IMG/VR virus record: IMGVR_UViG_3300034356_001766
Coordinates: 712 to 64,711 of that record
From: a virus
Lineage: Duplodnaviria > Caudoviricetes
DNA length: 64,000 nucleotides
Strand: one strand, 5' to 3'
Shown here: positions 7,157 through 49,876 of the stretch, one piece after another
Position numbering within the stretch: position 1 is the first letter of the stretch
Layout: each line of letters starts with the position of its first letter
Program-made: the position numbers and the translations under genes
Notes under the pieces: model-generated
Databases searched by the model: none
What the model saw: the letters and a program-made list of their open reading frames with translations, nothing else
What the model was told of the DNA's origin: nothing

Positions 7157-8233
7157 ATGAACAATCTAGATAAAACATACCAGGCACTACTTCAGGACAT
7201 CCTAGATAATGGAGTAGAGAAAACAGACAGAACAGGTACTGGAACAATCTCAGTATTCGGTCGTCAAATTAGACATAAAATGTCTGAAGGTTATCCTTTG
7301 CTTACTACCAAGAAAATGGCATTCAAAACTATGGTAACTGAGTTACTATGGTTTCTAAGAGGAGATACCAACATCAAGTATTTGGTTGATAATGGTTGTC
7401 ATATTTGGGATGGTGATGCTTACAAAAATTACCTTGATAATGTTAAGTCCGTTGAAGAAGGGAAACAGGTTGAAGAAAATGGAAAAATTTATACCTATAG
7501 AAAATATACTAAAGAAGAATTCGTTGATTATATTAAAAATGGAAAGGATATTGAATATAGAATATGGGCTGATTTAGGACCAATTTATGGTAAGCAATGG
7601 AGAAATTGGAATGGGGATAATTTTATTTATGGTGACCTTAAAAATGGTATAGACCAAATCGCAAACCTAATCAACGACCTTAAAACAAATCCAGACTCAA
7701 GACGATTGATGGTTAATGCTTGGAATGTGGGGGAGTTGGATAAAATGACTTTACCTCCTTGTCATTATGGATTTCAAGTTTATACAAGAGAGTTAAGTAG
7801 GGAAGAACGAATGAGAATTCTTTCAAAAACTCAACCAGTTCAGAGCTGGGAAGGTTATATGAAAAAAGATTTAGATGCGATTGGTGTTCCTAAACGAGCA
7901 ATCTCTTTAATGTGGAATCAACGCTCAGTAGATACATTCTTGGGTTTACCATTCAACATTGCTTCATACGGACTATTACTTGAAATGATTGCTAAGGAAG
8001 TAAATATGATCCCAGATGAATTGATTAGTAATCTAGGAGATGTTCATTTGTATAAGAATCATATCGAACAGGCAAAAGAACAAATCACTAGAGAGCCGTT
8101 TGAATTACCTAAATTAGGAATGAATTATAGAGAGGGAGAATATAATAAAAATTTAACAGATTTTATTCCTGATGATTTTTATCTTATAGATTATCAATCA
8201 CACCCAACAATTAAAGCACCTTTATCAAATTGA
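7157..8233 (+). CDS. thyA: Thymidylate synthase
   Basis: DRTGTGT, ELLWFLRGDTN, LGPIYGKQWR, LPPCH, QRSVD.FLGLPFNIASY and GDVHLY motifs. Confidence 0.98.
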   Translation: MNNLDKTYQALLQDILDNGVEKTDRTGTGTISVFGRQIRHKMSEGYPLLTTKKMAFKTMVTELLWFLRGDTNIKYLVDNGCHIWDGDAYKNYLDNVKSVEEGKQVEENGKIYTYRKYTKEEFVDYIKNGKDIEYRIWADLGPIYGKQWRNWNGDNFIYGDLKNGIDQIANLINDLKTNPDSRRLMVNAWNVGELDKMTLPPCHYGFQVYTRELSREERMRILSKTQPVQSWEGYMKKDLDAIGVPKRAISLMWNQRSVDTFLGLPFNIASYGLLLEMIAKEVNMIPDELISNLGDVHLYKNHIEQAKEQITREPFELPKLGMNYREGEYNKNLTDFIPDDFYLIDYQSHPTIKAPLSN

Positions 8234-9532: not shown

Positions 9533-10465
9533 ATGGAAATAGAAAATAAAGTAGGATGTCACTGCGTAGTGAGTCTATCCGGAGGAATGGATTCCTCTAC
9601 GTTGCTGCTTAAGGCATTAACTGAATTTGATACTGTCACGGCAGTTTCATTTGACTACGGTCAAAAGCACAGAGTAGAGCTTGATCGAGCTCAAGATTTG
9701 GTAAACTATCTAAATGGCAGAGCTGATGAGACTAAGTATAAAAGTGATTTAGCAGAAGTTATTATGCATCACTTCCCTAAAGTCAACTACCAGGTAATTA
9801 AGCTTGATGGCCTGAGCCAGCTCCTAAACTCGGCCCTAGTAACAGGAGGTGCCGAAGTTCCGGAAGGTCACTACGCATCCGAGAATATGAAAGCGACAGT
9901 AGTACCTAACAGAAACAAAATTTTTAGCTCAATCACCCAAGCCATCGCTTTATCTATAGCAAATGAAAAACAAGAAGACTGCTCCATCGCCCTTGGAATC
10001 CACGCCGGAGACCATGCCATCTACCCTGACTGCAGACAAGAGTTCAGAGACGCTGACGACCACGCATTTCGTATGGGTAACTGGGATAGCGATCGGGTAT
10101 CTTATTGGACTCCTTACCTGGATGGTGATAAGTTCACTATCCTAGAAGACGGAGAGAAGTTGTGTAAGGAGCTAGGGCTTGACTTTGATGAAGTATATTC
10201 ACGCACTAATACTTCCTACAAGCCAATCCTTCTAGAGGTAGAATCAGACACCCCAGGAAAAAAAGTAATGAATGTAGGTATGTGGAATCAAGGCTACTAC
10301 AAATGGTACTCAGATTATAAATCAGCTTCATCAGTAGAACGAGTTGAAGCATTTATCAAGCTAGGGCGTCCCGATCCTGCACCTTATGCTGATGAGACCG
10401 GCCCTGTGACTTGGGAGCACGTAGTAGGGGAAGTCTCAAAGGTTCTTGCAGCTGTAGAGAAATAA
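9533..10465 (+). CDS. queC: 7-cyano-7-deazaguanine synthase
   Basis: SGGMDS, FDYGQKH, TVVPNRN and YPDCR motifs; the C-terminal Zn cysteines are absent (TNTSYKP...SDYKSASSVER). Confidence 0.95.
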   Translation: MEIENKVGCHCVVSLSGGMDSSTLLLKALTEFDTVTAVSFDYGQKHRVELDRAQDLVNYLNGRADETKYKSDLAEVIMHHFPKVNYQVIKLDGLSQLLNSALVTGGAEVPEGHYASENMKATVVPNRNKIFSSITQAIALSIANEKQEDCSIALGIHAGDHAIYPDCRQEFRDADDHAFRMGNWDSDRVSYWTPYLDGDKFTILEDGEKLCKELGLDFDEVYSRTNTSYKPILLEVESDTPGKKVMNVGMWNQGYYKWYSDYKSASSVERVEAFIKLGRPDPAPYADETGPVTWEHVVGEVSKVLAAVEK

Positions 10466-10509
10466 TTTAAAGAGAGCTTGTCTCTCCCACTATTTATAAC
10501 TATATTTAG

Positions 10510-10538
10510 AGTGTCGGAGCACCACTATAAAAACACCC
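10510..10538 (+). ncRNA. preQ1-I-riboswitch-like aptamer, copy 1
   Basis: AGTG-TCGGAGCAC-CACT-ATAAAAACA-CCC; starts just after promoter TATATTTA (10501-08) and ends 1 nt before ATG 10540. Confidence 0.55.
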
Positions 10539-10539
10539 A

Positions 10540-11133
10540 ATGAAAAAGTTACTTCTATTTTTGCCCTTAATCTGGGCTTGTGAAACGATCGAGCCAGCTG
10601 CTCCTGAGCCATGCCAGGAATGCATCACCTCCCATCGCGTGGACACAGTCCAGCATCCCGGCACCTACCTCCAGGACGGATACTGGCATTTAAAGTACTC
10701 CGGCCTTATCTACTTCCAGGTCATAGGTCAGCTAGATTCCATACATCCTAGATATGTTATAAATGGAGTACCCTTATTAGAAGTAACATATGATAGCGAT
10801 ACCTGGTATGTGTTTGATACCATTGCTATGCAAATACCTCTATACTCTCCTTTTACCTCACAGTACACCTCCCCGAACTTTAACTACCCCATCTCGGTAG
10901 GAGATACTACGATCTATATCACCAATCCTAACTACATTGTAAATGCGGTAGGGTACTCGTTCGGGAGTACAAATTTTGTAAATGCTATGCATACATACCA
11001 GCCCCGGTGCGAGGTCCTAGTATTCGAAGAAATGATTGGAGATACGATCTCAGTTTTCATCCGCACACGGTACAACTACGATACCGGTAAACAAAAAATA
11101 GTAGGAGACACACTTAAAGTTATAATAGAATGA
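10540..11133 (+). CDS. Predicted lipoprotein of unknown function
   Basis: MKKLLLFLPLIWAC lipobox. Confidence 0.7.
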   Translation: MKKLLLFLPLIWACETIEPAAPEPCQECITSHRVDTVQHPGTYLQDGYWHLKYSGLIYFQVIGQLDSIHPRYVINGVPLLEVTYDSDTWYVFDTIAMQIPLYSPFTSQYTSPNFNYPISVGDTTIYITNPNYIVNAVGYSFGSTNFVNAMHTYQPRCEVLVFEEMIGDTISVFIRTRYNYDTGKQKIVGDTLKVIIE

Positions 11134-11387
11134 GCAAAAAACAGCTGCTGACCGAACCGGTCCTCCCTAAGGAGAGAATCCTTACTTCCAGGTTCCTGAA
11201 CCCTGAATTTGTACACACCACAAAGAGTCTAGAGAAGATGCCTGACCAGAAGTGGCACCAGATCATCTCCTTCATCAAGTCCGGAGTGAGGATTGTAGGT
11301 TACGGAATCATTCCTTTCGATTTGGTAGCTGCGGCGATCGTTCTTATATTTAGTGAAGTGATCGGCATTATCGAAGAACTGGTTTAA
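11130..11387 (+). CDS. Small membrane protein
   Basis: H..ISFIKSGVRI...EVIGIIEELV hydrophobic C-terminus. Confidence 0.65.
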   Translation: MSKKQLLTEPVLPKERILTSRFLNPEFVHTTKSLEKMPDQKWHQIISFIKSGVRIVGYGIIPFDLVAAAIVLIFSEVIGIIEELV

Positions 11388-11397
11388 AATTATTAAA

Positions 11398-11859
11398 ATG
11401 AGTTATCAAGCAACTAAAGTATTTGACGGCTACTCGACGGTGTTCCGTCAATGGAAAGCTGAAGGGACTCACTGCCGATTCCTACACGGGTACGGAGTAA
11501 GTCTCAAGGTATGGTTCGAAGGCGAACTAGACGAAAGGAACTGGGTATGGGATTTCGGAGGTATGAAACGTGCTGTAGGTAATATAGACGGAATGAATCC
11601 TAAGACATGGATGGATTATATGCTCGATCATACCACCATTATAGCCGAAGATGATCCTGAGCTTGAAAACTTTAAAGCAATGCACGAGAGAGGACTTATT
11701 CAGTTGAGAGTCATCCCTGCTACGGGAGCAGAACGCTTTGCAGAATACTTCTACGGGAAGTTAAACGATTTCGTCCAGGCTGAGACCCAGCACCGGGTGA
11801 GAGTAGTCCAGGTAGAGTTCCGGGAGCATGAGAAGAATACAGCAATTTATAAATCATAA
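11398..11859 (+). CDS. queD: 6-carboxy-5,6,7,8-tetrahydropterin synthase
   Basis: HCRFLHGY, WDFG, LDHT and E..KNTA motifs. Confidence 0.92.
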   Translation: MSYQATKVFDGYSTVFRQWKAEGTHCRFLHGYGVSLKVWFEGELDERNWVWDFGGMKRAVGNIDGMNPKTWMDYMLDHTTIIAEDDPELENFKAMHERGLIQLRVIPATGAERFAEYFYGKLNDFVQAETQHRVRVVQVEFREHEKNTAIYKS

Positions 11860-11861
11860 CC

Positions 11862-12644
11862 ATGGCATTAAAGAGAGTTGAAGATTATAGTAAGATTCTA
11901 CCTATTGTAGAGCTTTATACCTGTATACAGTCGGAAGGTTCAAGAGCAGGTAGACCGACTGTCGCCGTTAGGACTACCGGCTGTACTCACCGCTGCTACT
12001 TCGGTGAAGGGGGCTGGTGCGATTCTTGGTATACTAGTATCCATCCTGAGAAAGGTAAATATAGTTTTCAAGATATTATTAATATTTACGATGCTAATCC
12101 TGAAATTAAGGAGATGATGCTTACGGGAGGTTCTCCTACTATGCACCCCGCAATCGTGAACGAACTAACTCACTTTGCAAATGAAAGGCAAATCATCATT
12201 ACTATTGAGACTGAAGGCTCTGCTTTCCTCGAAACTGATTACCCTATTGGCCTTATTAGCTTCAGCCCTAAATTTAGTAATAGCGTACCTGTTTTGGGAG
12301 CTACTACACCCTTAGGAAGTACTGTAGATCAAAAGTTTATCGATACTCATAATCGCTTTAGACTCAATAAAGATTCTATTAAGCAGTCAATGGCTTACCA
12401 TTCTGACTATCATATGAAGGTAGTTGTTAATCCAGTTGAACATCCAGATGTTTGGACTGAGATTAGATCATTTATGGATGAGCTAGAGGTACCAAAAGAC
12501 AAGATATGGATTATGCCCCCGGGTGATAATCGTGAAGAACTAATCCGTGTTTACCCTATGGTGATTAATTGGTGTACTGCTAATATGTACAACTTCACAG
12601 GCCGGGAACATATCATTGCTTTTGATACTAAAAGAGAAGTCTAA
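11862..12644 (+). CDS. queE: 7-carboxy-7-deazaguanine synthase (radical SAM)
   Basis: IQSEG, RTTGC-x3-C-x7-CDS (expanded cluster motif), TGGSP, IETEG and SPK. Confidence 0.93.
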   Translation: MALKRVEDYSKILPIVELYTCIQSEGSRAGRPTVAVRTTGCTHRCYFGEGGWCDSWYTSIHPEKGKYSFQDIINIYDANPEIKEMMLTGGSPTMHPAIVNELTHFANERQIIITIETEGSAFLETDYPIGLISFSPKFSNSVPVLGATTPLGSTVDQKFIDTHNRFRLNKDSIKQSMAYHSDYHMKVVVNPVEHPDVWTEIRSFMDELEVPKDKIWIMPPGDNREELIRVYPMVINWCTANMYNFTGREHIIAFDTKREV

Positions 12645-12823
12645 TGCCTTACATAATTCTTAAACACACCACCATCAACGGTAGTCCCAGGACTATCCTT
12701 GTAAACGATAGTGAAGGAATTTGTATGGAGTTTACCACTTTTGAAAGTGCTGCTAAGCTAGCAGAGCTTTTCCAGGCCAACTCTACCTCCGGGAATATCT
12801 ACGAAATAAAAGAGCTAAAATAA
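12644..12823 (+). CDS. Small hypothetical protein (59 aa)
   Basis: Hand translation MPYIILKHTTING...IYEIKELK; start overlaps the queE stop. Confidence 0.5.
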   Translation: MPYIILKHTTINGSPRTILVNDSEGICMEFTTFESAAKLAELFQANSTSGNIYEIKELK

Positions 12824-13002
12824 TGCCGCACAACTACCTTCAGGTACTTCATCAGCTATGGGCTCTTAAGATCCTAGAACCTTCCGGCATCATAGCCGCT
12901 ATACATCCTTACGGATACAGACTAAACTACATCACCCTTGACGGTTTAGGGGTAGAGAGTGAGAATGAAAAGTTTCAATTCAAGCACGGAGTCCGGTAAA
13001 GC

Positions 13003-13191
13003 ATGAAACTCGGAGAGACAATAAACGTAGGAGATGATTGGTACAAAATTTTTAGAACAGTTAGAGAAGATCGCCAATGGGATGCTGAACTTCTTAAACA
13101 GTACTGGTTTTGTACACATACCTTCCGTAAGGATGGTGTGCTCTATTTTTGTAGAGAGATACCGAAAGTTGAATTTGAAGAAATAATTTAG
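13003..13191 (+). CDS. Small hypothetical protein
   Basis: ORF in array. Confidence 0.55.
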   Translation: MKLGETINVGDDWYKIFRTVREDRQWDAELLKQYWFCTHTFRKDGVLYFCREIPKVEFEEII

Positions 13192-13275
13192 TGTTTTTAG
13201 AAACTAACTTAATATGAAACGTTTTATCAACAAACTTATAAGAGCATTTTTTAAATTTATTCAATACCACTAGCA

Positions 13276-13869
13276 ATGAAAAAATTACTACTCCTACTTT
13301 TACTTCCTATCTCTCTTTTTGCACAGCTACGAGATAGCGTCTATTTCAACAATACCCATTTCGTTATAAACTACTCCGAAACTCTGGAAGGACCAAGATC
13401 TATTCGATATACGGTACTGTGTCCAACCGGGACAGCCTCAAGATCGGGTATGGAATTCTATAAGGAGAAAAAGATTCATACTTCAGACCACAAAGATTAT
13501 GAAGCAAATGTATGGGATAAAGGACATATGGTTCCTGCTGCATCATTCAACTGCAACCGAGATATGCTATTCTCTACCTTTACTTATATAAACTCTAGCT
13601 TGCAGCACCAAAGCCTTAACAGAGGAGTTTGGAAGAAGCTCGAGGTCCGGGAAAGAGAATTAGCTACAAAAGGAAGTTTAAGGGTCTTTATTAGAATAGA
13701 GTACCCGACTGAACCCGTCAGAGTTACTACCGGTGCTGCTATACCTTTAGGGTACTACAAAGAAATAAAAGTTGGAAATAACAGAGAATGTTACTATTTT
13801 AAGAACGTGCAACCGAACACATCAGATCTTCAGACTTATAAATGCCCATGCAGAAATGTTATTAAATAA
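13276..13869 (+). CDS. Secreted DNA/RNA non-specific endonuclease
   Basis: Signal peptide, WDKGHMVPA and LNRGVWKKLE motifs. Confidence 0.9.
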   Translation: MKKLLLLLLLPISLFAQLRDSVYFNNTHFVINYSETLEGPRSIRYTVLCPTGTASRSGMEFYKEKKIHTSDHKDYEANVWDKGHMVPAASFNCNRDMLFSTFTYINSSLQHQSLNRGVWKKLEVRERELATKGSLRVFIRIEYPTEPVRVTTGAAIPLGYYKEIKVGNNRECYYFKNVQPNTSDLQTYKCPCRNVIK

Positions 13870-14375
13870 TGCGTAACCTTTTTACACCTCAGGAAATAGA
13901 TCTTAAGATTAAGATAATAGCTAAAAAGATTTCTGCCGAACACCAGGGAGATAAAACTCCCGTAGTCATGGTAGGGCTTCTCAATGGAGCGTTTATGTTC
14001 TACTCAGACTTAGTACGTAATCTATCAATTGACGTAGAGTGTGATTTTATAAGAGTCAAAAGCTATACAGCCCAGTTTAAGCAAGGTGATATCAAGATAC
14101 TTAAGGACTTAGAGACTCCTATCAAAGGTAAGCACGTATACTTGGTAGATGATATATATGATACCGGCACTACTATGAAAGCACTAATTGAGTACCTAGA
14201 GGTTAAGAAGCCTGCCTCTATCTCGATTGTAACTCTACTTCGTAGAGAAACTTCTCCGACTCCGGAACAAACCTCCTACCATGCCTTGTCTATCAAAGAT
14301 GAATGGGTGGTGGGTTACGGGATGGATGATGAAAACGGTTATTCAAGAAATTTAGATGGAGTGTTTGCACTCTGA
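13869..14375 (+). CDS. hpt: Hypoxanthine/guanine phosphoribosyltransferase-like protein
   Basis: GLLNGAFMFYSDL, YLVDDIYDTGTT and WVVGYGMD motifs. Confidence 0.92.
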   Translation: MRNLFTPQEIDLKIKIIAKKISAEHQGDKTPVVMVGLLNGAFMFYSDLVRNLSIDVECDFIRVKSYTAQFKQGDIKILKDLETPIKGKHVYLVDDIYDTGTTMKALIEYLEVKKPASISIVTLLRRETSPTPEQTSYHALSIKDEWVVGYGMDDENGYSRNLDGVFAL

Positions 14376-14399
14376 GATAAGTTTCGTATATTGTACAAC

Positions 14400-14428
14400 G
14401 GTGTCGTAGCACCACCTTAAAAACACTA
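14400..14428 (+). ncRNA. preQ1-I-riboswitch-like aptamer, copy 2, upstream of folE
   Basis: GGTG-TCGTAGCAC-CACC-TTAAAAACA-CTA; loop TAG can pair with tail CTA; lies between promoter TATATTGT (14387) and ATG 14435. Confidence 0.65.
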
Positions 14429-14434
14429 ATTAAT

Positions 14435-15145
14435 ATGGCAGATAAAAAGCACTATGATGTTGAACTAGCTAAAGCCGGGTTCGCTAACGGCATCTCTACC
14501 CAGCTCGCTGATAAGTTCAAGAAGCATAAGATGATCGATATTCATCTTTCCGAGCAGGAGAAACACGCCATCATCCAAGACGCTGCACAGGCGTTTGGAA
14601 AGTTCCTAGATGCGCTAGGTGTTGACTGGAAGAACGATCCTAACTCCTCCGACACCCCTAACCGAGTTGCTAAGGCTTACGTAAACGATTTATGGGCTGG
14701 ACGATTCAATCCTATGCCCGCTATCACGGCATTCCCTGCCGACGACTACGACGGGATAGTCTTTGAAGGTAATATTCCTTTGACCTCTATGTGCTCCCAC
14801 CACCACCAAGCCATTCAAGGCCGGGTTCATATCGCTTATATCCCAGGTCCAGGCGGTAAAGTGATCGGGCTATCTAAACTAAACCGGGTAGTAGAGCATT
14901 TCGGCCGCCGAGGAGCAATCCAGGAACAGCTTACAGTCGCCATCCATAACGCAGTCAATACCGTTTGCGAAGATAACATCGGTGTAGCTGTTATGATTGA
15001 AGCTACTCACAACTGTGTTTCCTGCAGAGGAACAAAACACGCAGGAGCCTCTATGAAAACTTCTAAGTTATCAGGAAGCTTCTTAAACGAAGACTCAGCC
15101 CGTGCTGAATTTTATGAATTTGTAAAAGGATACTCATGCAAGTAA
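14435..15145 (+). CDS. folE: GTP cyclohydrolase I
   Basis: DTPNRVAK, SMCSHH, GLSKLNR, IQEQLT and HNCVSCRG motifs. Confidence 0.97.
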   Translation: MADKKHYDVELAKAGFANGISTQLADKFKKHKMIDIHLSEQEKHAIIQDAAQAFGKFLDALGVDWKNDPNSSDTPNRVAKAYVNDLWAGRFNPMPAITAFPADDYDGIVFEGNIPLTSMCSHHHQAIQGRVHIAYIPGPGGKVIGLSKLNRVVEHFGRRGAIQEQLTVAIHNAVNTVCEDNIGVAVMIEATHNCVSCRGTKHAGASMKTSKLSGSFLNEDSARAEFYEFVKGYSCK

Positions 15146-15639
15146 AAAGAGTAAAATTTGTTGATGAAGTAGAAGTATTCAACAAAACGTTCGGTAAGCC
15201 TAACAACTACACCCCTACCGTCCCTAATGATAAAAAGCTTACTGACTTTGTAGTTAGCTTTATTAGAGAGGAGACTGATGAACTTGAGCAGGCCATCAAG
15301 GATAAAGATATCGTTGAGGTACTGGACGCGATATGTGATCTTCTGTATGTCGCAGTCGGTAATGCTACTATGGTCTTCGGACTCAAGGATAAGCTAGTCC
15401 CGGCCTACGCCGAGGTACAAGCCTCGAATATGTCTAAGAGCTGTGCTACTGTTGAAGAAGCTGTAGCTACCATCAATGAGAGATCTAAAGAGCATGGGGA
15501 GTGTTACTTCCGAAAGGTTGGTAGCCGATATGTTGTCTATCGGAAGTCTGACGATAAGGTTATGAAGTCCATAAACTACTTCGCCCCTAACCTCGAGCAA
15601 TTCTTTACCGAAGAAGAAATTAAAAAAGCCAAGCAATGA
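15136..15639 (+). CDS. MazG-like all-alpha NTP pyrophosphohydrolase (PRA-PH/DR2231-like)
   Basis: IREETDEL, EVLDAICDLLYV, EVQASNMSK and KVMKS motifs. Confidence 0.85.
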   Translation: MQVKRVKFVDEVEVFNKTFGKPNNYTPTVPNDKKLTDFVVSFIREETDELEQAIKDKDIVEVLDAICDLLYVAVGNATMVFGLKDKLVPAYAEVQASNMSKSCATVEEAVATINERSKEHGECYFRKVGSRYVVYRKSDDKVMKSINYFAPNLEQFFTEEEIKKAKQ

Positions 15640-15824
15640 CACCCCAGGAATTAATCGATCAAAATAAAACTTTCTCAGAAGAGTTGCAGCAATGGATTGT
15701 ACCTCTTATCTTTGTAGACGAAGCTCTTAGGATGAAAACTGCTCAGGAGGTCGACCAGAGTATTAAACAGCTTGAAGAAGTAATGCAAGAATTAAATTCA
15801 GTAATTAATAAGATAAATGATTAA
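15636..15824 (+). CDS. Small hypothetical protein
   Basis: Overlaps both neighbours. Confidence 0.55.
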   Translation: MTPQELIDQNKTFSEELQQWIVPLIFVDEALRMKTAQEVDQSIKQLEEVMQELNSVINKIND

Positions 15825-16647
15825 GATAGCTCATGAAGCTCCAAAAGCCATCTTCGGTAAGATGCAAGAACTTACTGATTACGATTATGCTTTAGTGCAT
15901 CTCTTTGAAGAAGATCCTGAATACCTTCAGCAGTTCAAAGACGCTTTAGCAGCAGGCAGGGAGGTTATCTTAGATAATTCTATCTTTGAACTTGAAGAAG
16001 CTTTTGATGCCGAACGTTTTACTTACTGGATCAACGAACTTAAGCCAACCTGGTATATTGTTCCTGATGCATTAGAGAACGTAAAGAAGACTATGTCTAA
16101 TATGGCAGAGTGGAATGTTAGGTATGCTCACAAAGTACCCGTTGAATGTAAGAAGATTGGGGTTGTGCAGGGTAAGACTTATACCGAGCTCGCTAACTGC
16201 TACGATCACATGATCAATTCAGCTCAAGTTGATATGGTTGCTATCTCTTTTGACTACAGTTACTACGAGGAGAAGTTTCCTCACCCTAATAAGTACGTCA
16301 GCTGGATGCTGGGTAGGGTTCAGCTACTAGGTCGGATGCTTAAAGACGGAGTAATTAATACTGATATGCCTCATCACCTTCTAGGTTGCGGACTACCTCA
16401 AGAGTTTCAATTTTACCGCGAAGCTAATTATGATTGGATTTACTCCTTGGATACTTCCAACCCAGTAGTCCACGGCCTGAAAGAGGTCTACTACAAGGAT
16501 CAGGGGCTATGGAATAAAGAATCTCAGAAACTCTTTACCATGATTAACTCTGAAGTAACTTCTACTCAGATGGAGGTCATTCGTCATAATGTCTCACGCT
16601 TTAGATGGTTTGCAAATGGAAACGCGCAAGTGGGTAGCATTCTTTAG
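15817..16647 (+). CDS. TGT-fold TIM-barrel protein, DpdA3-like 7-deazaguanine insertion enzyme
   Basis: ILDNS, IVPD, GVVQG, HLLG and SLDTSNP motifs typical of TGT/DpdA relatives; lies inside the que cluster. Confidence 0.75.
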   Translation: MIKIAHEAPKAIFGKMQELTDYDYALVHLFEEDPEYLQQFKDALAAGREVILDNSIFELEEAFDAERFTYWINELKPTWYIVPDALENVKKTMSNMAEWNVRYAHKVPVECKKIGVVQGKTYTELANCYDHMINSAQVDMVAISFDYSYYEEKFPHPNKYVSWMLGRVQLLGRMLKDGVINTDMPHHLLGCGLPQEFQFYREANYDWIYSLDTSNPVVHGLKEVYYKDQGLWNKESQKLFTMINSEVTSTQMEVIRHNVSRFRWFANGNAQVGSIL

Positions 16648-17152
16648 TCAGACTGGTTCCGAGATCGTTCAGATCTCAGAAGCACTGGGCCGATGGCCGG
16701 ATATGATTATTACCAATCGCCGGCCTGAGTCTGCTAGGATTATTAATTCCGGGATACCTGAAGATAAGATTTATTATACCTCCAATAGTCCTGAGGGGTA
16801 TGAGTATTTTCATTACCTCTGTCAGGTACAAGATCCGATAGTTACTCTTCACGGATGGCTGAGAGTAGTACCAGAGGAAATTTGTACTAATTACGAGATG
16901 TATAACGGACATCCAGGACTTATAACCAAGTACCCTGAACTCAAAGGTAAAGATCCTCAGATCCGAGCCTTCCAAGGAAATTATAACACAGGAGGTTGCG
17001 TTATTCATAAAGTAACTCCCGGGGTAGACGAAGGAGAGATCCTTATGGAAAGAGAAGTAGGAATCAGGCTGTTGGATCATGAGGGTTTATTTCGTATCTT
17101 GCATAAGACTTCGGTAGATATGTGGGTAGAATTCCTTAAAGAAAGGTTATGA
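16616..17152 (+). CDS. PurN-like formyltransferase (DpdN-like preQ1 formyltransferase)
   Basis: FFSQTGS, GWLRVV, YNGHPGL and GCVIHKVTPGVDEGEI motifs. Confidence 0.85.
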   Translation: METRKWVAFFSQTGSEIVQISEALGRWPDMIITNRRPESARIINSGIPEDKIYYTSNSPEGYEYFHYLCQVQDPIVTLHGWLRVVPEEICTNYEMYNGHPGLITKYPELKGKDPQIRAFQGNYNTGGCVIHKVTPGVDEGEILMEREVGIRLLDHEGLFRILHKTSVDMWVEFLKERL

Positions 17153-17667
17153 TTAAGAGATTGGCATTAGTAGGGGCTAGCAGTACCGGTAAAACGACTG
17201 TGTATGAGCTGCTTAAGAATCAGCTCCCTAAGTGGGAGTTTGTAAATGAAAGTACCCGGAGGGTAGCTCGGTATGGCTTCCCTATCAATGAACTCGGCAC
17301 TACCGAAACTCAGTTAGCTATCTCAAGCTTTCATCTAGAGGCATTACTCAAACCTTACAACCTGATCTTAGACCGCTGCTACTTAGACTTAGTAGTTTAC
17401 TCCCGTCATATGCCCGGACTCTCCCAGTCCGGTCTAGAGTACATAGAAGATACTTGGAAGAGAGTCCAGGATGAATATACCCACTATATTTATTTCCCTA
17501 TCGAGTTCCAGGCGATCGATGACGGAGAAAGAAGTGTTGACGAAGATTGGAGAAAGATCATCGATCAAGAATTTAAATACCAGTTGGATCAGACTGACAG
17601 GCATTACCTGGCTGTGACCGGCTCACCTATGCAGAGAATAAATCAAATCCTTAAATACATTAAATAA
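17149..17667 (+). CDS. P-loop nucleotide kinase-like protein (AAA_28/NadR type)
   Basis: GASSTGKTT, LDRCYLD and DDGER motifs. Confidence 0.8.
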   Translation: MIKRLALVGASSTGKTTVYELLKNQLPKWEFVNESTRRVARYGFPINELGTTETQLAISSFHLEALLKPYNLILDRCYLDLVVYSRHMPGLSQSGLEYIEDTWKRVQDEYTHYIYFPIEFQAIDDGERSVDEDWRKIIDQEFKYQLDQTDRHYLAVTGSPMQRINQILKYIK

Positions 17668-18581
17668 TGGACCATAATAAGAACCAAAGTGCAGTTGTAG
17701 AGATTGCAAGCAAACACCTCGGCCAGGTAGGAGGTGCCGGGTACTCCGATCAGTACGATCCTTCGCTGCTGGTTGCGATCCCACGTTACCTAAACCGAGA
17801 GGCTTACGGCATCAAAGAAGAGAGCCTACCTTTTATAGGAGTGGATGTCTGGAATGCTTACGAAGTCTCGGCGATCACTAAGAAAGGATTACCGGTAGCA
17901 GGGATGCTTAAGATTGTATGTCCTGCCGACTCACCTTTCCACGTAGAGTCAAAGTCAATCAAGCTTTACCTAAACTCTTTTAACATGACTGCTTTCGGTG
18001 AGACTGCTAGAGAGTGTATCGAGTTTATCGAAAGTCAGGTCTCTAAAGATCTTACCGACCTCCTGCAAGGAGAGGTGACTTGTAAGTTTTTTACCAGTAA
18101 CGATATTCACGAGTATCAGTTTGTAGAGTTTACTCCCCTCGGTGCTTTGGTTGATCTGGATGCAGTAGAGTTTACTTCCTTCCATTCTGATGCTACCCAG
18201 CTTAAGATCTGGCATACAAAAGAGGATGTAGTAGTTAAGAAGATTGAATCTGATCTACTTAGATCTAATTGCCGGGTGACCAATCAGCCGGATTGGGGTG
18301 ATGTTTATATTCATATGATTGGTAAGAACGTTCCTGATGAGGCATCACTGGCCCAGTACATAGTCTCTCACCGCCAGGTATCTCACTTCCACGAAGAGAT
18401 TTGTGAGATGATCTTTACCCACCTTACTGAGGCTTATCAGCCTGAAGGTCTGATGGTAGCATGTCTTTACACCCGAAGAGGAGGATTGGATATTAACCCT
18501 ATCCGATCAACGCACGCTAATCTGATCCCGGGCTGGTACAAAGATCCTACCAAGCGGATGAAGAAAACTTTACGACAATAA
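17667..18581 (+). CDS. queF: NADPH-dependent preQ0 reductase, two-domain type
   Basis: VESKSIKLYLNSF, RSNCRVTNQPDWG, FHEEICE and YTRRGGLDINP motifs. Confidence 0.96.
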   Translation: MDHNKNQSAVVEIASKHLGQVGGAGYSDQYDPSLLVAIPRYLNREAYGIKEESLPFIGVDVWNAYEVSAITKKGLPVAGMLKIVCPADSPFHVESKSIKLYLNSFNMTAFGETARECIEFIESQVSKDLTDLLQGEVTCKFFTSNDIHEYQFVEFTPLGALVDLDAVEFTSFHSDATQLKIWHTKEDVVVKKIESDLLRSNCRVTNQPDWGDVYIHMIGKNVPDEASLAQYIVSHRQVSHFHEEICEMIFTHLTEAYQPEGLMVACLYTRRGGLDINPIRSTHANLIPGWYKDPTKRMKKTLRQ

Positions 18582-18586
18582 GAGTT

Positions 18587-18608
18587 GGCTCCTTCGGGAG
18601 CCTTTCTT
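18587..18608 (+). terminator. Intrinsic terminator overlapping the polA promoter
   Basis: GGCTCC-TTCG-GGAGCC-TTTCTT; also GTTG(18584)-N20-TATATTTA(18608). Confidence 0.8.
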
Positions 18609-18620
18609 ATATTTAGCTAT

Positions 18621-20954
18621 ATGTCAATAGAAAAAAAGTACTACCTCGTCACCGATAAAGAGACTGTAAACCTCTTAATCCAGCACATCCAGGAATCAAA
18701 AGTAATCGCTTATGATACCGAGACTGACTCCCTCAATATGAGGAAAGGTCAGATTATAGGATTCTCCGTATCAGGGGATATCGGGATGGGGTTTTACCTA
18801 CCTACTATGGCCTGGAACCACCAGACCGGTACCCTAGATGAACTTAACATTGAAGGGGTACCTTGCCACTCTATAGCAAAAAAAATCTTACCTATGTTAA
18901 TCGGCAAGAAGCTTGTAATGCACAACGCATCGTTTGACTGCCGGTTTACTAAAAACTTTTACAAGGTTGACCTCCTGGAAAGTTTATGGGTAGATACTGC
19001 CTTACTAGTCCACACCGTCCAAGAGGAGGGAGCAGGGATGGGGGTATTCGGTCTTAAATCTCTAGCAATATCAGTACAGAATGAAATCGGACTCGACGTC
19101 GAAAAAGCTGCCAACGAAGAGCAGGTCCTACTCAAGGAATCTATTAAAGCCAATGGAGGTTCAGCTACTAAGGAAAACTACGAGATTTACAAAGCCGACA
19201 TGGAGCTTTTGGGTAAGTACGCTGCTGCTGATACCGACCTTACTCTTCGTCTGTGTAGTCATTTTATGGACGTTCTTCAACGAGAGGGTCTTGAAAAATT
19301 CTTCTTCGAAGACGAAGTAATGCCCCTCTACAAGGAGGTTACTATCCCGATGGAGGAGATGGGTGTTGACTTGAATATAGATTTGCTGCTTGAGACTAGG
19401 GATGAGATCTTAAAAGACTTAGCTGAGAATAAGCAGATCGTTCTCAAATCTCTGATAGGTACTAAGGCCGGCCAGGAATGGGTCGTAGACACTGCTCTAA
19501 ATGAGTTCCCACCCTCTAACAAAGGTACATGGGCACAGACACTAGCCGAGCGCTACTCCCTCTCTCTGCCTAAATCTGATAAGACTGGTAAGTTCTCTAT
19601 AACCAAAAAGACTTTAGAGGAGCTAGAAGATTCTCCTGCTAAGGAATACTTACTAACCGGGGATCTAAACCTCTTAGATACTATGGAGGCTATGAAGATA
19701 TCGATGTCTCTATGGAAGCAAAAGAACGACGGCGACTATGTTAACATTCAGTCTAAAAAGCACCTAGGAGAGATAGCATTTAAGTATATGAATATCCGGG
19801 CTAGGTCTCAGACCGCTAAAGGTCAGGACCAGTTCGATATGGATATGTTGGAGGATTTGTCTAAGACTCACTCCTGGGCCGAGAATCTCCGGGTGTATAA
19901 CAAGCTTCTTAAGATTAAGTCTACTTACATCGATCGATTTGTTGATAACGCCGAAGATGGGAAGTACTTCTTTTACTTCAAGCAGCACGGTACTGTCTCC
20001 GGCCGATACGGCTCCGACGCCCAGCAGCTACCCAAACCCAAGGAAGAGGGTGAGGACGTTCCAATTATCGTTAAGTACAATAACGCTGTTAGAGCTTTCT
20101 TGATAGCTGGAGAAGGAAGGAAGATAATCGATGCTGACTACGAGTCACTAGAACCTCACTGCTTTGCTTCAGTATCCGGGGATAGAGGTCTGCAAGATAT
20201 CTTTAATAATGGATGGGACTTCTACTCTACAGTCGCTATCAAAGCCGAGAAGCTAGAACTAGATAAAGTCAACTACCCTAATGGAGTTAGTCCGGATAAA
20301 AAATCTCCAGTCTACCTTAAGAAGATCGATCCCGTTAAAAGAAATAAAGCCAAGGCCTACTCGCTAGGAATCGCTTACGGTATGGAGGCTTACGCGTTAG
20401 GAAAGTCTTTGGATATAGATCAGAAAGCAGCCCAGATACTAGTTGACGGATACTTGGATGGGTTCCCTGAGCTTAAAGCCTGGAGGATCAACTCCCGGCA
20501 GCACGTCAAAGAACATGGCTCTATTAAGAATAAAGTAGGTCGGGTGAGGCACCTACCTAAAGTCCAGAGACTCTACCTTAAGTACGGAGATCAGATCATG
20601 GACTGGAGATATAGGAATGAGCTCGCCAATACTTACGGTAAGGAACAGGTCATGAGTATGTATAGGGATTATCGCAACGGACTTAATAACTGCCTGAACT
20701 ATCAGCTGCAGTCTCTAGCAGCGGCTGTTGTCAACCGAGCTGCTATCCAGATCAATCGGAAGTTAAAAGAGATGGGAATTGACGGACGAGTTCAGGCTCA
20801 AGTCCATGACCAGCTTATAATCAACGTTCCGGAACATCAGGCTGAGTTAGTAGCCCCTATCATAAAAGAGATCATGGAAAACACCACCCAGCTAGAAGGA
20901 GTAACTCTAAAAGCCCCTCCTGAGATTACCAATAATTGGAGGGATGGGCACTAA
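18621..20954 (+). CDS. polA: Family A DNA polymerase with 3'-5' exonuclease domain
   Basis: Exonuclease motifs DTET, HNASFD and YAAAD; polymerase motifs TVSGR, DYESLE, KAYSLGIAYG and VHDQ. Confidence 0.95.
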   Translation: MSIEKKYYLVTDKETVNLLIQHIQESKVIAYDTETDSLNMRKGQIIGFSVSGDIGMGFYLPTMAWNHQTGTLDELNIEGVPCHSIAKKILPMLIGKKLVMHNASFDCRFTKNFYKVDLLESLWVDTALLVHTVQEEGAGMGVFGLKSLAISVQNEIGLDVEKAANEEQVLLKESIKANGGSATKENYEIYKADMELLGKYAAADTDLTLRLCSHFMDVLQREGLEKFFFEDEVMPLYKEVTIPMEEMGVDLNIDLLLETRDEILKDLAENKQIVLKSLIGTKAGQEWVVDTALNEFPPSNKGTWAQTLAERYSLSLPKSDKTGKFSITKKTLEELEDSPAKEYLLTGDLNLLDTMEAMKISMSLWKQKNDGDYVNIQSKKHLGEIAFKYMNIRARSQTAKGQDQFDMDMLEDLSKTHSWAENLRVYNKLLKIKSTYIDRFVDNAEDGKYFFYFKQHGTVSGRYGSDAQQLPKPKEEGEDVPIIVKYNNAVRAFLIAGEGRKIIDADYESLEPHCFASVSGDRGLQDIFNNGWDFYSTVAIKAEKLELDKVNYPNGVSPDKKSPVYLKKIDPVKRNKAKAYSLGIAYGMEAYALGKSLDIDQKAAQILVDGYLDGFPELKAWRINSRQHVKEHGSIKNKVGRVRHLPKVQRLYLKYGDQIMDWRYRNELANTYGKEQVMSMYRDYRNGLNNCLNYQLQSLAAAVVNRAAIQINRKLKEMGIDGRVQAQVHDQLIINVPEHQAELVAPIIKEIMENTTQLEGVTLKAPPEITNNWRDGH

Positions 20955-21063: not shown

Positions 21064-21501
21064 ATGACACACATCAAGTACACCCCGTGGACTGTAGATT
21101 ATACATCCACATTCGATATCCTTTTTAAGGATTTCTTTAACACAAACTCAACGTTTGTATCCCCGATCGATCAAAAGATCGGACATCCAGTAGATATTTA
21201 TGAAAATGAAAAAGGGTTATTCTTCGAGATCGCCGCTACCGGCCTCTCGAAACAAGATACCAAAATCTCCATTGAAGGTGACGTCCTTCGAATTATTCAC
21301 GATAAAGTGGAAGAGCAGATCGATAAGACTAAAGTTCGTTATTACAACAAAGGACTTAGTAAGCGATCGTTCAATCTAGGTTATAAAATCGCCCGTCGAT
21401 TTGATTTGAGCACCATTGATGCCCAGATGAAAGACGGATTACTAACTATTTCAATCTCTCATGCTGAAGGCAATAAGCCTCACGAAGTAAAGATTAAATA
21501 G
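21064..21501 (+). CDS. Small heat-shock protein (Hsp20/alpha-crystallin)
   Basis: PVDIYE, GLSKRSF and AQMKDGLLTI motifs. Confidence 0.92.
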   Translation: MTHIKYTPWTVDYTSTFDILFKDFFNTNSTFVSPIDQKIGHPVDIYENEKGLFFEIAATGLSKQDTKISIEGDVLRIIHDKVEEQIDKTKVRYYNKGLSKRSFNLGYKIARRFDLSTIDAQMKDGLLTISISHAEGNKPHEVKIK

Positions 21502-21559
21502 AGTTGCATTTGGTCCCCTGCAATTTTTTTCGTATCTTTAAGTATTAATCAATATAGTT

Positions 21560-21841
21560 ATGACAAGAGGAAAAAAAGTTGGGCATATTAAGCCGCAAAT
21601 TACCATTAAGGATGAGATGATCAATCCTTACTACGTTAGTGTAGATGAGAATCAATTCACCGTTCAGATCGAAGGTTCTACTCTCCCGTTAGGGTACTAC
21701 AGTACTCTGGAAGTAGCTATCAAACGTATCGCAAAATATAAGCTTGTAGAGAATCTTAATCAGTCTACTGTTGACTTGAACAGCTTCCTTAAGGCTTACG
21801 ATTCCATTCTAAGTCAAATCAATAACAGAATCCCAGTATGA
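21560..21841 (+). CDS. Hypothetical protein
   Basis: ORF after promoter TTTG(21509)-N20-TATCTTTA(21533). Confidence 0.65.
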   Translation: MTRGKKVGHIKPQITIKDEMINPYYVSVDENQFTVQIEGSTLPLGYYSTLEVAIKRIAKYKLVENLNQSTVDLNSFLKAYDSILSQINNRIPV

Positions 21842-22134
21842 AAAAATTAATTCCGCTCAATGATCGGATAGTTGTAAAACCTATCGAGCAGTCCGAGCAG
21901 ATGTACGGCAATATTATTATTGCTGATATGGGCAGAGAGCGCCCGGAGATGGGTGAAGTCATCGCAGTAGGCCCTGGCCGGATGTCCGAATACGGCAAAT
22001 TCATTCCCGTCAACGTTAATGTTGGGGATGTGGTGCTGCTGCCTAAGATCGGAACTATCCGAGTAGAGTTCGACGGTGAGGAATACTACATCGGTCAATC
22101 AAGAGAAATCCTTTGTAAAGTAACAGAAAAATGA
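21838..22134 (+). CDS. groES: Co-chaperonin GroES
   Basis: PLNDRIVV, GEVIAVGPG and VGDVVL motifs. Confidence 0.95.
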   Translation: MKKLIPLNDRIVVKPIEQSEQMYGNIIIADMGRERPEMGEVIAVGPGRMSEYGKFIPVNVNVGDVVLLPKIGTIRVEFDGEEYYIGQSREILCKVTEK

Positions 22135-23765
22135 GTAAGAGAGTAGAATTTTCAAATCAAGCACGCCTGAGGCTCCTAGCAGGAGTTGAGCAGCTTGCCA
22201 ACGCAGTAACTTCGACATTAGGTCCTAACGGCCGGAATGTCATCATCGAACAATCAGCCGGTAACCCGACCTCAACCAAGGACGGTGTGACGGTTGCTAA
22301 GGCGATGGAGCTAGAAGATACTATCGAGAATATGGGCGCCCAGCTGGTAAAGCAAGCATCCATTAAGACCGCTGACGGAGCCGGGGACGGTACTACTACC
22401 TCAACCCTTCTAGCGTATGAGATCTATAGAGAGGGTTTAGAGTATCTGGACTTACATAACGCCGTTGATATCAGCCGAGGAGTGGCCAAGGCTACTAAAG
22501 GAGTGGTGGAGTATCTGGAGAAGCAGGCCCGCGAAATCACTGACGAGAATCAGCTAAGACAGGTAGCTACTATCTCAGCCAACAACGACCCAGAGGTCGG
22601 AGAGCTGATTGCTGCTGCAATGGATAAGGTAGGCCGGGATGGAGTCGTTACTATTGAAGAGTCAAGGACGGGTGAGACCTATCTAGAGACTGTTGAGGGT
22701 ATGCAATTCAATAGAGGTTACAAGTCGATATACTTTGTTACCGATAACAATAGCATGACTGCAGCTCTGACTAATCCACTGGTGCTGATAACGGATAAAA
22801 AGGTTACCGCTGCTAAAGAGCTGCTACCTATACTAGAGGCTTGCTCGGCACAGAACAAGGCTCTGCTTATTATCGCCGATGACATCGACGGAGAGGCTTT
22901 ATCAACGCTGGTGGTTAACAAGATGAGAGGTATCTTGCAGGTAGTGGCTGTGAAGGCTCCTGAGTTCGGAGATCGTAAAAAAGCTATCCTTGAGGATATC
23001 GCTACACTGACCGGCGGTCAAGTAGTATCAGCCGAGAAAGGAATGAGACTTGAGAAGTTCAACACCGACTGGCTAGGTTCAGCCCGGAAAGTTACCATCG
23101 GAAAAGAAGAGACTACAATCGTTGACGGTAAAGGTACTTCAGAAGCTATCCAGGAACGGGTTGAAGAGATCAAAGCTATGATCGATAACTCAAAGTCACC
23201 TTTCGAGAAAGAGTCTTTGCAGGACCGGTTAGGTAGGCTGATAGGCGGGGTAGCGATCGTTTACGTAGGAGGTCAATCTGAACTAGAGATGAAAGAGAAA
23301 AAAGATAGGGTAGAGGATGCACTGCATGCCACTAAGGCAGCCCTACAGGAAGGCATTTTGCCAGGTGGAGGTATCGCACTGCTTAACGCCGGACGCTTCC
23401 TGGAGTCAAATAAAGGTGATATGCATTTCGCTAACACCTCTACTGAGGTCGGATACAATATCCTTCTGCAGGCCATCAATAAGCCCTTCTTTAAGATCCT
23501 GACCAATGCCGGGTATAGCGCCGAGTACTGTGACGGCATCAAGGCTAAGGTTCTTGACACGGGTAATCCCTGGCAAGGTTTTAATCTACGGACTGAAGAG
23601 TACGTTGATATGTTTGAGGAAGGTATTATCGATCCTGCCAAGGTAACACGCCTGGCATTAGAAAATGCAGCTTCAATTGCAGGTACTATGCTTACAACCG
23701 AATGCGTTATAAGCAACCTAAAAGAGAAGAGCAACGACCCTATGGATTTTAATTCAATGATGTAA
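22131..23765 (+). CDS. groEL: Chaperonin GroEL
   Basis: TLGPNGRN, TKDGVTVA, GDGTTT, GMQFNRGY and IIDPAKV motifs. Confidence 0.98.
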   Translation: MSKRVEFSNQARLRLLAGVEQLANAVTSTLGPNGRNVIIEQSAGNPTSTKDGVTVAKAMELEDTIENMGAQLVKQASIKTADGAGDGTTTSTLLAYEIYREGLEYLDLHNAVDISRGVAKATKGVVEYLEKQAREITDENQLRQVATISANNDPEVGELIAAAMDKVGRDGVVTIEESRTGETYLETVEGMQFNRGYKSIYFVTDNNSMTAALTNPLVLITDKKVTAAKELLPILEACSAQNKALLIIADDIDGEALSTLVVNKMRGILQVVAVKAPEFGDRKKAILEDIATLTGGQVVSAEKGMRLEKFNTDWLGSARKVTIGKEETTIVDGKGTSEAIQERVEEIKAMIDNSKSPFEKESLQDRLGRLIGGVAIVYVGGQSELEMKEKKDRVEDALHATKAALQEGILPGGGIALLNAGRFLESNKGDMHFANTSTEVGYNILLQAINKPFFKILTNAGYSAEYCDGIKAKVLDTGNPWQGFNLRTEEYVDMFEEGIIDPAKVTRLALENAASIAGTMLTTECVISNLKEKSNDPMDFNSMM

Positions 23766-39861: not shown

Positions 39862-40221
39862 ATGAATGATAAGAAAGTTACTGCTCAAGTGAGCGCAGTT
39901 GAGATTCTAAAGAAAGAATACCCGACTATCTACAATGGCTATACTCAGGTCCAGCAAGAGCAACTAGAGCTCTTCGCTAAGAAGCACCTTGACTACGGGA
40001 TGCATAACATTACTGCAGGTACCCAGCTCGCTACTGAAGATGAGATTGGCTTTGCTCTGACCGGGCTCTGGTATCGGATCTCTGATAAAGTAAGCCGATG
40101 GAAGAACCTGCTTATTAATCGACGAAGCGTTCAGAACGAATCCTTGATGGATACTTACCAGGACCTGGCTAACTACGGCATCATAGCTCAGCTAGTGGCA
40201 AGGGGGATGTGGAAGAAGTAA
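39862..40221 (+). CDS. Nucleotide modification associated domain 1 (DUF1599-like)
   Basis: KKHLDYG, RISDKVSR and ESLMDTYQDLANYGII motifs. Confidence 0.85.
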   Translation: MNDKKVTAQVSAVEILKKEYPTIYNGYTQVQQEQLELFAKKHLDYGMHNITAGTQLATEDEIGFALTGLWYRISDKVSRWKNLLINRRSVQNESLMDTYQDLANYGIIAQLVARGMWKK

Positions 40222-40222
40222 G

Positions 40223-49113: not shown

Positions 49114-49140
49114 AAAAGAAGTTCATATATTAAATAATTG

Positions 49141-49866: not shown

Positions 49867-49876
49867 ATTACGGACT

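Follow-up and report, generated by a model that had tools for sequence, protein, structure and literature searches.

Complete replacement of guanine by a 7-deazaguanine was described for Flavobacterium phage immuto_2-6A (hereafter immuto), whose DNA displayed no deoxyguanosine (dG) peak and contained 345,000 residues of formylated deoxy-preQ1 (fdPreQ1) per 10^6 nucleotides (PMC10516641). In that report, where immuto is the only phage given with fdPreQ1 replacing dG in virion DNA, Cui, Hutinet et al. introduced the names DpdA3 for the subfamily of transglycosylases and DpdN for the formyltransferase, and concluded in favour of post-replicative insertion. The route of whole-base replacement is known for analogues of thymine, cytosine and adenine; for 7-deazaguanines it has been inferred from the presence of DpdA homologues. 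Here we analysed 64,000 nt (the window, to which all coordinates refer) of a 64.7-kb viral record, IMGVR_UViG_3300034356_001766, in which a cluster at 9533-20954 had been proposed, from the letters of the window, to encode a complete pre-replicative pathway for replacing guanine with formyl-preQ1 (the original prediction). Judged by its sequence, the window is a new uncultivated member of the known immuto-type system for complete guanine to formyl-preQ1 replacement, and this identity is secure.

The cluster is carried by the plus strand, as are 85 of the 88 retained open reading frames (ORFs) of the window, in the order queC, queD, queE, a nuclease gene, a phosphoribosyltransferase (PRT) gene, folE, a mazG-like gene, dpdA3, dpdN, a kinase gene, queF and polA. 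All genes named in the original prediction were recovered at their positions with the ORF list, Pfam and PHROGs, including the full preQ1 pathway, whose five enzymes lie within 9533-18581: QueC (preQ0 synthase, 9533-10465; PF06508, E 7.6e-37; 70% identity to immuto QueC), QueD (6-carboxytetrahydropterin (CPH4) synthase, 11398-11859; PF01242 (PTPS), E 5.4e-16; phrog_2389, E 2.3e-39; 70% identity to immuto), QueE (radical SAM synthase of 7-carboxy-7-deazaguanine (CDG), 11862-12644; phrog_2076 (QueE-like), E 4.1e-47; 67% identity), FolE (GTP cyclohydrolase I, 14435-15145; PF01227, E 3.2e-44; 74% identity) and QueF (preQ0 to preQ1 reductase, 17667-18581; PF14819, E 2.7e-33; PF14489, E 3.5e-19). 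Together with this gene set occurred the two other marks of an fdPreQ1 system, a DpdA3-subfamily transglycosylase and a DpdN encoded with the pathway. DpdA3 (15817-16647, 276 residues) displayed 68% identity over 268 residues to the immuto protein annotated 'DNA guanine transglycosylase' (DpdA). DpdN, a PurN-like formyltransferase (16589-17152; PF00551 (Formyl_trans_N), E 9.1e-10), was 58% identical to immuto DpdN (YP_010114479.1 locus) from residue 12 on, and its start is likely ATG 16616, overlapping the end of dpdA3. From dpdA3 through queF, consecutive genes overlap or abut.

Ten cluster proteins (QueC, QueD, QueE, FolE, MazG, DpdA3, DpdN, kinase, QueF and PolA) were 58-74% identical to those of immuto; with the nuclease included, all cluster proteins except the PRT matched immuto at 51-74%. 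Gene order was likewise shared (QueD, QueE, PRT, FolE, MazG-like, DpdA3, DpdN, kinase, QueF, PolA, GroES/EL), with two differences. In immuto, queC and the nuclease gene (gp012) lie 11-20 kb from the cluster, whereas they are inside it here, and the PRT of immuto is a short Gpt-like protein, giving no tblastn match, whereas that of the window is HGPRT-like (hypoxanthine-guanine PRT) with 168 residues. At the DNA level the region had almost no match among GenBank phages, apart from one 137-base stretch to Flavobacterium 'immuto' phages; four IMG/VR contigs encoded a DpdA3 88-100% identical to that of the window.

As to how the base enters DNA, we slightly prefer a route at the nucleotide level, with DpdA3 and the kinase at its core, to exchange at the DNA level, giving it a chance just short of even; nothing decides between the two. 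In the favoured route, DpdA3 would swap guanine for the deazaguanine on the deoxyribose of a free dG nucleoside or nucleotide instead of on finished DNA, DpdN would add the formyl group to the free nucleoside or nucleotide, and the kinase would phosphorylate the modified product towards the triphosphate. Any replicative polymerase of the phage could then incorporate it, and a dedicated one would be unneeded. The MazG-like enzyme, and its analogues in other lineages, would lower dGTP; MazG may supply dGMP, or do both. The HGPRT-like enzyme would most likely recycle the released guanine through GMP to GTP for FolE and is probably not the maker of the modified nucleotide. DpdA3 could then be the first member of the tRNA-guanine transglycosylase (TGT) superfamily to swap a base on a free dG nucleoside or nucleotide, forming with the fused or adjacent DpdN and kinase an assembly line to a fifth deoxynucleoside triphosphate (dNTP), so that replacement would be pre-replicative in these widespread aquatic and gut phages; we advance this tentatively, as a possibility on the lower side of even. 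Several published observations fit the nucleotide-level route: the nucleoside of 7-amido-7-deazaguanine (ADG) was detected in cells infected by CP220, DpdA3 could not be brought to work in the Escherichia coli DNA-modification model of those authors (PMC10516641), and a route through modified dGTP was proposed earlier for Campylobacter phages (PMC6884629).

It is the conserved small kinase that hints at a swap on free nucleotides before DNA copying. Its ORF (17149-17667; AAA_28 family, PF13521, E 1.6e-15; 66% identity to an immuto protein annotated thymidylate kinase) lies between dpdN and queF, as originally predicted. The kinase model (predicted local distance difference test score, pLDDT, 91.4) was closest in Foldseek to the NadR ribosylnicotinamide kinase domain (6gyf, query-normalised template modelling score, TMq, 0.80; probability 1.00), followed, all with probability 1.00, by human deoxyguanosine kinase (2ocp), Mycoplasma deoxyadenosine kinase (2jat), deoxycytidine kinase (dCK), SPbeta YorR and thymidylate kinases. 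Sequence comparison with solved structures returned one weak row (4cvn, E 0.024). The family alignment displayed invariant G9, G14, K15, T17, D75, R76 and R128, with a P-loop, a DR motif and a conserved DDGxRS. On this model, the AAA_28 protein is predicted to have a nucleoside/nucleotide-kinase fold, and it is a conserved partner of DpdA3. A predicted complex of DpdA3 and kinase scored 0.32, 0.02 and 0.02, which has no bearing either way.

Conservation of the partnership was assessed by a DpdA3 alignment search of viral contigs, in which a relative was encoded by 579 of the 599 pattern matches; from these, the 80 best loci were retained. A second locus set, mostly from the same contigs, was obtained with a re-ordered DpdA3 alignment, and ORFs were scanned by iterated searches seeded with window proteins. 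The 94 distinct DpdA3 sequences comprised 73 loci with at least 2.5 kb downstream and 61 with both flanks. Kinase, DpdN and QueF occurred in 68, 69 and 72 of the 73 loci, respectively; in the first set the kinase was present in 59 of the 63 loci with at least 2.5 kb downstream. Loci devoid of DpdN (L040, L041 and L087) retained the kinase. Co-occurrence of the kinase with dpdA3, expected by the original prediction, was thus borne out in the viral loci, and it extended to phages from GenBank. CP220 and phiST, both DpdA3 phages, were the next GenBank matches after immuto (DpdA3 identity 38% and 24%). In CP220, DpdA3 (gp056) is located between gp055 (HD plus AAA_33) and gp057, which the kinase profile matched with E 2e-44. 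In phiST and Chryseobacterium phage MA9V-3, an AAA_18 kinase lies directly upstream of DpdA3, and two genes farther upstream are found MazG in phiST and a dCTP-deaminase-like (DCD-like) protein in MA9V-3. No kinase-profile match was obtained in the QueF clusters of VH7D, pf16 and Dp-1, which had no DpdA3 profile match. The presumed DpdA proteins of these three phages had no Pfam match, and the control therefore stands only for QueF clusters without a DpdA3 profile match.

Fused proteins further tie the three enzymes together. DpdA3-DpdN fusions were found in P0178 and P0244 (447 residues each) and L177 (463 residues), and a DpdN-kinase fusion of 373 residues in P0272. Since a kinase requires a hydroxyl or phosphate acceptor, the latter is easiest understood with a nucleoside or nucleotide as substrate of the formyltransferase. 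The window kinase alone, used as query among longer proteins, returned no fused forms; the alignment query found P0272 and P0271. In P0271 (505 residues) the kinase is fused to DUF5591 (PF17884, E 1.7e-8), a domain described in Pfam from archaeosine-synthase-type proteins.

DpdA3 itself belongs to a large family, which counted 3745 clusters when grouped at 90% identity; grouping at 50% identity left 1433 representatives, of which 278 had E <=1e-30. Its model, derived from 36 diverse members (pLDDT 95.4), matched TGTs both in Foldseek (Zymomonas mobilis TGT, probability 1.00, E 4.1e-8, TMq 0.62) and in VIA (Z 18.0, rmsd 3.3 over 237 residues). In the Foldseek ranking, DpdA, the DNA-modifying enzyme of bacteria (7ui4), came 10th (E 3.1e-7). 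Among the 36 aligned sequences D53, D84, R167 and H187 were invariant and D212-T213-S214 at least 90% conserved. The HHLLG...DTSNP region aligned on HLLG...SIDS of 7ui4, with D212 on SIDS, in a weak profile alignment (E 0.54). D53, D84 and D212 are thereby candidates for the catalytic aspartates of the TGT type. In the 36 sequences, none of the invariant or 90%-conserved columns was a cysteine (the window protein has three in all), which means that the Cys/His zinc site of TGT enzymes is absent. DpdA3 is accordingly modelled as a minimal TGT-fold barrel without conserved cysteines. Window DpdA3 matched no Pfam family at E <=0.01, hence no TGT model, and CP220 DpdA3 gave only a sub-threshold DUF6610 match. 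Its 276 residues make it 35-180 residues shorter than the putative DpdA of VH7D, pf16 and Dp-1 (311-458 residues); in net charge and pI it was not distinguishable from these, all being acidic. The remote representatives P0261 and P0269, used as single queries, retrieved no loci.

This fold, and the conserved Asp-containing motifs, are those of polynucleotide-acting enzymes, which speaks for the published model. There, replication proceeds with dGTP, after which DpdA3 puts preQ1 or formyl-preQ1 in the place of every G of the DNA; the substrate of DpdN is either the free base or DNA, while kinase, PRT and MazG only manage pools, the expelled guanine passing through GMP, GDP and GTP to FolE. To this model we assign a sizeable minority chance. 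The family's authors took DpdA in every modified phage as a post-replicative sign (PMC10516641), and the two types of PRT that occur in the cluster both look like salvage enzymes of the guanine type, as recycling of released guanine would have it. Salvage leaves unexplained, however, the kinase-formyltransferase fusion P0272 and the presence of a kinase, whether of this family or of a different one, right next to DpdA3 in four distant lineages from GenBank; hosts already possess guanylate kinase. Other DpdA subfamilies, acting on DNA, modify 0.1-30% of G, and DpdA3 failed in the E. coli test mentioned above (PMC10516641), both of which count against exchange on DNA.

Several observations weigh in turn against the nucleotide-level route. 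The kinase was not found in five of the 73 viral loci (L074, L076, L078, L079 and L120), nor elsewhere in their records, which are 5-49% complete, so that the latter result carries no weight. Among 17 contigs binned into metagenome-assembled genomes (MAGs) and encoding a divergent DpdA3 (34-66% identity), 12 had at least 2.5 kb downstream, and only half of these had the kinase near DpdA3 (present in L170, L172, L173, L175, L176 and L177; missing in L171, L174, L178, L179, L183 and L185), as the published model would allow. In four of five bins, a whole-bin search located the kinase family in another place, but bins may mix phages. The family also occurs in phages without DpdA3, again in keeping with the published model: tblastn matches to the kinase covered 112 GenBank phage records, of which 89 were Streptomyces phages and one a Rhodococcus phage, hosts that were absent from the 24 GenBank DpdA3 matches. 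The complete genome of Samisti12 gave no match to the DpdA3 profile, which does detect immuto and CP220. The kinase family is thus not specific to the DpdA3 system. MazG also adjoins the pf16 QueF cluster, in a phage without a DpdA3 match, and DpdA3 often adjoins replication genes, which fits a DNA-acting enzyme equally well. To our knowledge, no enzyme of the TGT superfamily acts on a mononucleotide, the characterised ones acting on tRNA, DNA or protein (Cap10). Lastly, the groups able to experiment on these phages stated insertion to be post-replicative (PMC10516641) or to take place 'into an existing DNA strand' (PMC10877033). The original prediction is partly supported: its pre-replicative chemistry on free nucleotides stays plausible, but it conflicts with the published statement, and the divergent loci and the wider spread of the kinase family weigh against it. 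The main text of PMC10516641, supplements aside, never uses the words 'kinase' and 'phosphoribosyl', and our literature search found no printed link of DpdA3 with a kinase or a PRT; the supplements of that paper may list neighbour genes.

Replication genes near DpdA3 also bear on a co-replicative exchange, in which DpdA3 would work at the fork on single-stranded or nascent DNA and the P-loop protein would assist it at the expense of ATP, in a role equivalent to that of DpdB. DpdA3 was found directly beside replicative polymerase or helicase genes in the unrelated lineages L068, L174, L177, L179 and L185; such coupling would explain complete, sequence-independent replacement, and bacterial DpdA requires ATP hydrolysis by DpdB (PMC10164549). 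Polymerase adjacency is nevertheless weak evidence, nucleotide-metabolism and replication genes commonly clustering in phages, and the partner has the fold of a small-molecule nucleoside/nucleotide kinase, neither ParB-like nor a motor ATPase. We regard fork-coupled exchange as improbable. The P-loop protein as a DpdB-like motor was rejected on its predicted kinase fold.

A further alternative, a variant of the original prediction, has the HGPRT-like enzyme join preQ1 or formyl-preQ1 to phosphoribosyl pyrophosphate (PRPP), with the kinase and ribonucleotide reductase (RNR) leading to the deoxy-diphosphate and PolA acting as dedicated polymerase, as in Z-genome phages. The PRT (13869-14375; PF00156, E 1.2e-23) matched 58 solved 6-oxopurine PRT sequences at E <=1e-3, the best being HGPRTs (3acb, E 2.3e-30). 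Type I features were kept: the PRPP loop VDDIYDTGTT aligned with VEDIVDTGLT, with the Asp of the DTG motif. Arg126 aligned with a Lys in the five best solved HGPRTs, and all six phage HGPRT-like copies, the window's included, carry Arg there (the five others by eye); in HGPRTs this Lys contacts the 6-oxo group. Phages of the immuto-like clade have, in the slot from queE to folE, either an HGPRT-like (168-178 residues) or a Gpt-like (138-149 residues) PRT (L020, L021, L023, L024, L026, L029 and L064), the Gpt-like protein of L023 matching 1vdm (E 6.5e-10) and E. coli Gpt (E 4e-4). With two 6-oxopurine PRT subfamilies in one slot, a guanine-type PRT activity seems selected there. These two subfamilies and the Arg substitution can be read in favour of a PRT making the modified nucleotide, as can TubE of the tubercidin pathway, which joins the 7-deazaguanine CDG to PRPP (PMC6112128). 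The nrdA gene, correctly predicted nearby, also suits this variant: the window start clips it to the C-terminal part of the RNR large subunit (24-677, plus strand; PF02867, E 1e-36).

Against making the nucleotide by PRT stands the accessory nature of the enzyme: it occurred in only 24 of the 61 two-flank loci, and no PF00156 match was obtained anywhere in the full records of CP220 and MA9V-3, even though CP220 DNA was reported fully modified (PMC10516641). The co-occurrence of the PRT with dpdA3 expected by the original prediction thus held for a minority of the loci. DpdA3, the sole invariant gene, would be left without a task, and a ribonucleotide route would be expected to load the RNA precursor pool with modified base. 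Since guanine is released one-for-one in either the nucleotide-level or the DNA-level model, its salvage into GMP, then GTP for FolE, explains the PRT well; judged from its sequence, salvage would account for the HGPRT-like gene at least as well as a role in making the modified nucleotide.

The polymerase part of this variant fared no better. PolA, a family A DNA polymerase with a 3'-5' exonuclease domain (listed ORF 18585-20954, plus strand; PF00476, E 2e-59; PF01612, E 2.7e-13), had 72% identity to its immuto counterpart, starting at residue 13. A terminator-like hairpin (18587-18602, GGCTCC-TTCG-GGAGCC), with a 6-bp GC-rich stem, a TTCG loop and a T-rich tail, separates polA from the queF stop (18581) and was the best-scoring plus-strand site in the scan. 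The listed TTG start of polA (18585) falls at this hairpin, so that the real start is probably ATG 18621, and the gene, although adjacent to queF as predicted, is probably not strictly co-transcribed with it. DpdA3 neighbours PolB in L068, L091, L179 and L185, PolIII-alpha in L087, and PolA in the immuto-like clade, L174 and L177. Adjacency of polA is lineage-specific (29 of the 61 two-flank loci) and the polymerase is not part of the module, which argues against the dedicated polymerase of the original prediction. Overall, both this PRT and dedicated-polymerase variant, which we hold to be the most doubtful of all, and fork-coupled exchange are less likely than the DNA-level model. In L177 (874-4378) the polA beside DpdA3 was split by a GIY-YIG homing endonuclease gene, and in L185 (5876-10098) the PolB beside DpdA3 displayed intein-splicing-domain matches.

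The hydrolase that would lower dGTP in the favoured nucleotide-level route is a predicted MazG/PRA-PH-type all-alpha NTP pyrophosphohydrolase (15136-15639, plus strand; PF01503, E 2.5e-12; phrog_671, E 3.6e-31; 59% identity to immuto gp208). Its sequence returned only chance-level rows from solved structures and its profile weak ones (DR2231, E 0.18; 3nl9, E 0.51). The association with dpdA3 expected by the original prediction held for half of the two-flank loci (31 of 61); folE was present in 52. Different NTP hydrolase families occurred within a few genes of DpdA3: MazG in the window and phiST, in CP220 an HD domain joined to a second kinase, and DCD-like proteins in MA9V-3 and several loci. 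The DCD-like gene (dUTPase fold) lay within a few kb of DpdA3 in L064, L076, L077, L078, L082, L177, L185 and MA9V-3 (L009:9773-10330) and recurred in lineages without MazG of the immuto-like clade.

Additional observations were made around DpdA3 and the kinase. Other DpdA3 fusions comprised a weak GNAT-like tail (P0266, E 0.047), DUF3310 (P0239), an unassigned 95-residue tail (P0257) and a 317-residue N-terminal part (P0122), likewise unassigned, and in L041 (3327-4853) a 508-residue GNAT protein and a glyoxalase-fold protein were inserted between DpdA3 and kinase; these may mark other preQ1 derivatives, for example an acylated one. YhhQ carries queuosine precursors. Genes for Vut_1 (YhhQ-type) transporters were found near DpdA3 in two phage-like MAG-binned contigs (L171:1353-2078 and L177:6900-7826) with no preQ1 synthesis genes in the fetched stretch, which suggests uptake of the base instead of its synthesis. 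The kinase homologues of Streptomyces phages (e.g. NC_042012.1, 68733-69302; 27-30% identity) are annotated as thymidylate kinase and reside in a replication/recombination module, with MazG 4.5 kb upstream and no DpdA3.

Elsewhere in the window, a thymidylate synthase ThyA is encoded at 7157-8233 (plus strand; PF00303, E 1.7e-97). The cluster nuclease, a Serratia-type DNA/RNA non-specific endonuclease directly preceding the PRT (13276-13869, plus strand; PF01223, E 1.4e-21; 51% identity to immuto gp012), displayed a hydrophobic, signal-peptide-like N-terminus by eye. Together with ThyA, GroES and GroEL it spanned 51-67% identity to immuto. A small plus-strand ORF of 62 residues between MazG and DpdA3 (15636-15824) had no family match in Pfam or PHROGs and was matched in five of the 80 loci, closest relatives only. 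Hsp20, GroES and GroEL genes follow polA (21064-23765), as in immuto. A 644-residue protein with a cohesin domain and a C-terminal Por_Secre_tail for type IX secretion sorting (31446-33380) suggests a host from the Bacteroidota. A DUF1599 ('nucleotide modification associated domain 1') protein directly precedes a PD-(D/E)XK nuclease 19 kb from the deazaguanine cluster (39862-41161). At 41383-58298 occurred a sugar-modification run with at least four glycosyltransferases, two epimerase/dehydratase genes, a DegT aminotransferase, WbqC, a PIG-L deacetylase and a methyltransferase; this glycan-synthesis block is unusually large for a phage.

Should the swap take place on free nucleotides, the statement of post-replication would need revision for subfamily DpdA3, and a new enzyme activity would be defined, with a three-enzyme route to 7-substituted 7-deaza-dGTPs for restriction-resistant DNA; complete guanine replacement would then be pre-replicative, like other classic whole-base replacements. 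Should it take place on DNA, DpdA3 would be a remarkably complete, sequence-independent DNA base exchanger.

Next to immuto, the closest known systems are those of CP220 (2'-deoxy-7-amido-7-deazaguanosine, dADG) and phiST (2'-deoxy-7-deazaguanosine, dDG). As in the window, a small kinase lies directly beside DpdA3 and an NTP hydrolase close by (HD in CP220, MazG in phiST). Both phages differ in having no DpdN and neither QueF nor QueC near DpdA3, hence different end products; CP220 further lacks a PF00156 PRT, and the kinase of phiST is from family AAA_18. The tubercidin and toyocamycin enzymes TubE/ToyH share with the window a purine-type PRT encoded beside FolE, QueD and QueE homologues, and the reaction of TubE with CDG and PRPP gives a biochemical precedent for nucleotide-level handling of 7-deazaguanines (PMC6112128). 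TubE, in contrast, yields a ribonucleotide for a secondary metabolite and does not accept 7-deazaguanine (PMC6112128), and it is likened to the window PRT at the family level only. Likeness to the Z-genome phages is one of logic, with a MazG-type enzyme and PolA in or by the cluster. In those phages (PurZ, MazZ, DatZ and DpoZ) a new nucleotide is made, the canonical dNTP is removed and incorporation occurs at replication. By contrast, no PurZ-like synthetase is present here; the base arises in free form and has then to be attached or exchanged, polymerase and module are not inherited together, and MazG is confined to about half of the loci. Bacterial DpdA, finally, shares the TGT fold (7ui4) with DpdA3 but has about 410-436 residues, modifies less than 1% of G at specific sites and acts with the ParB-like ATPase DpdB (PMC10164549), whereas the shorter DpdA3 of the window has no ParB-like partner in its cluster and goes with complete replacement.

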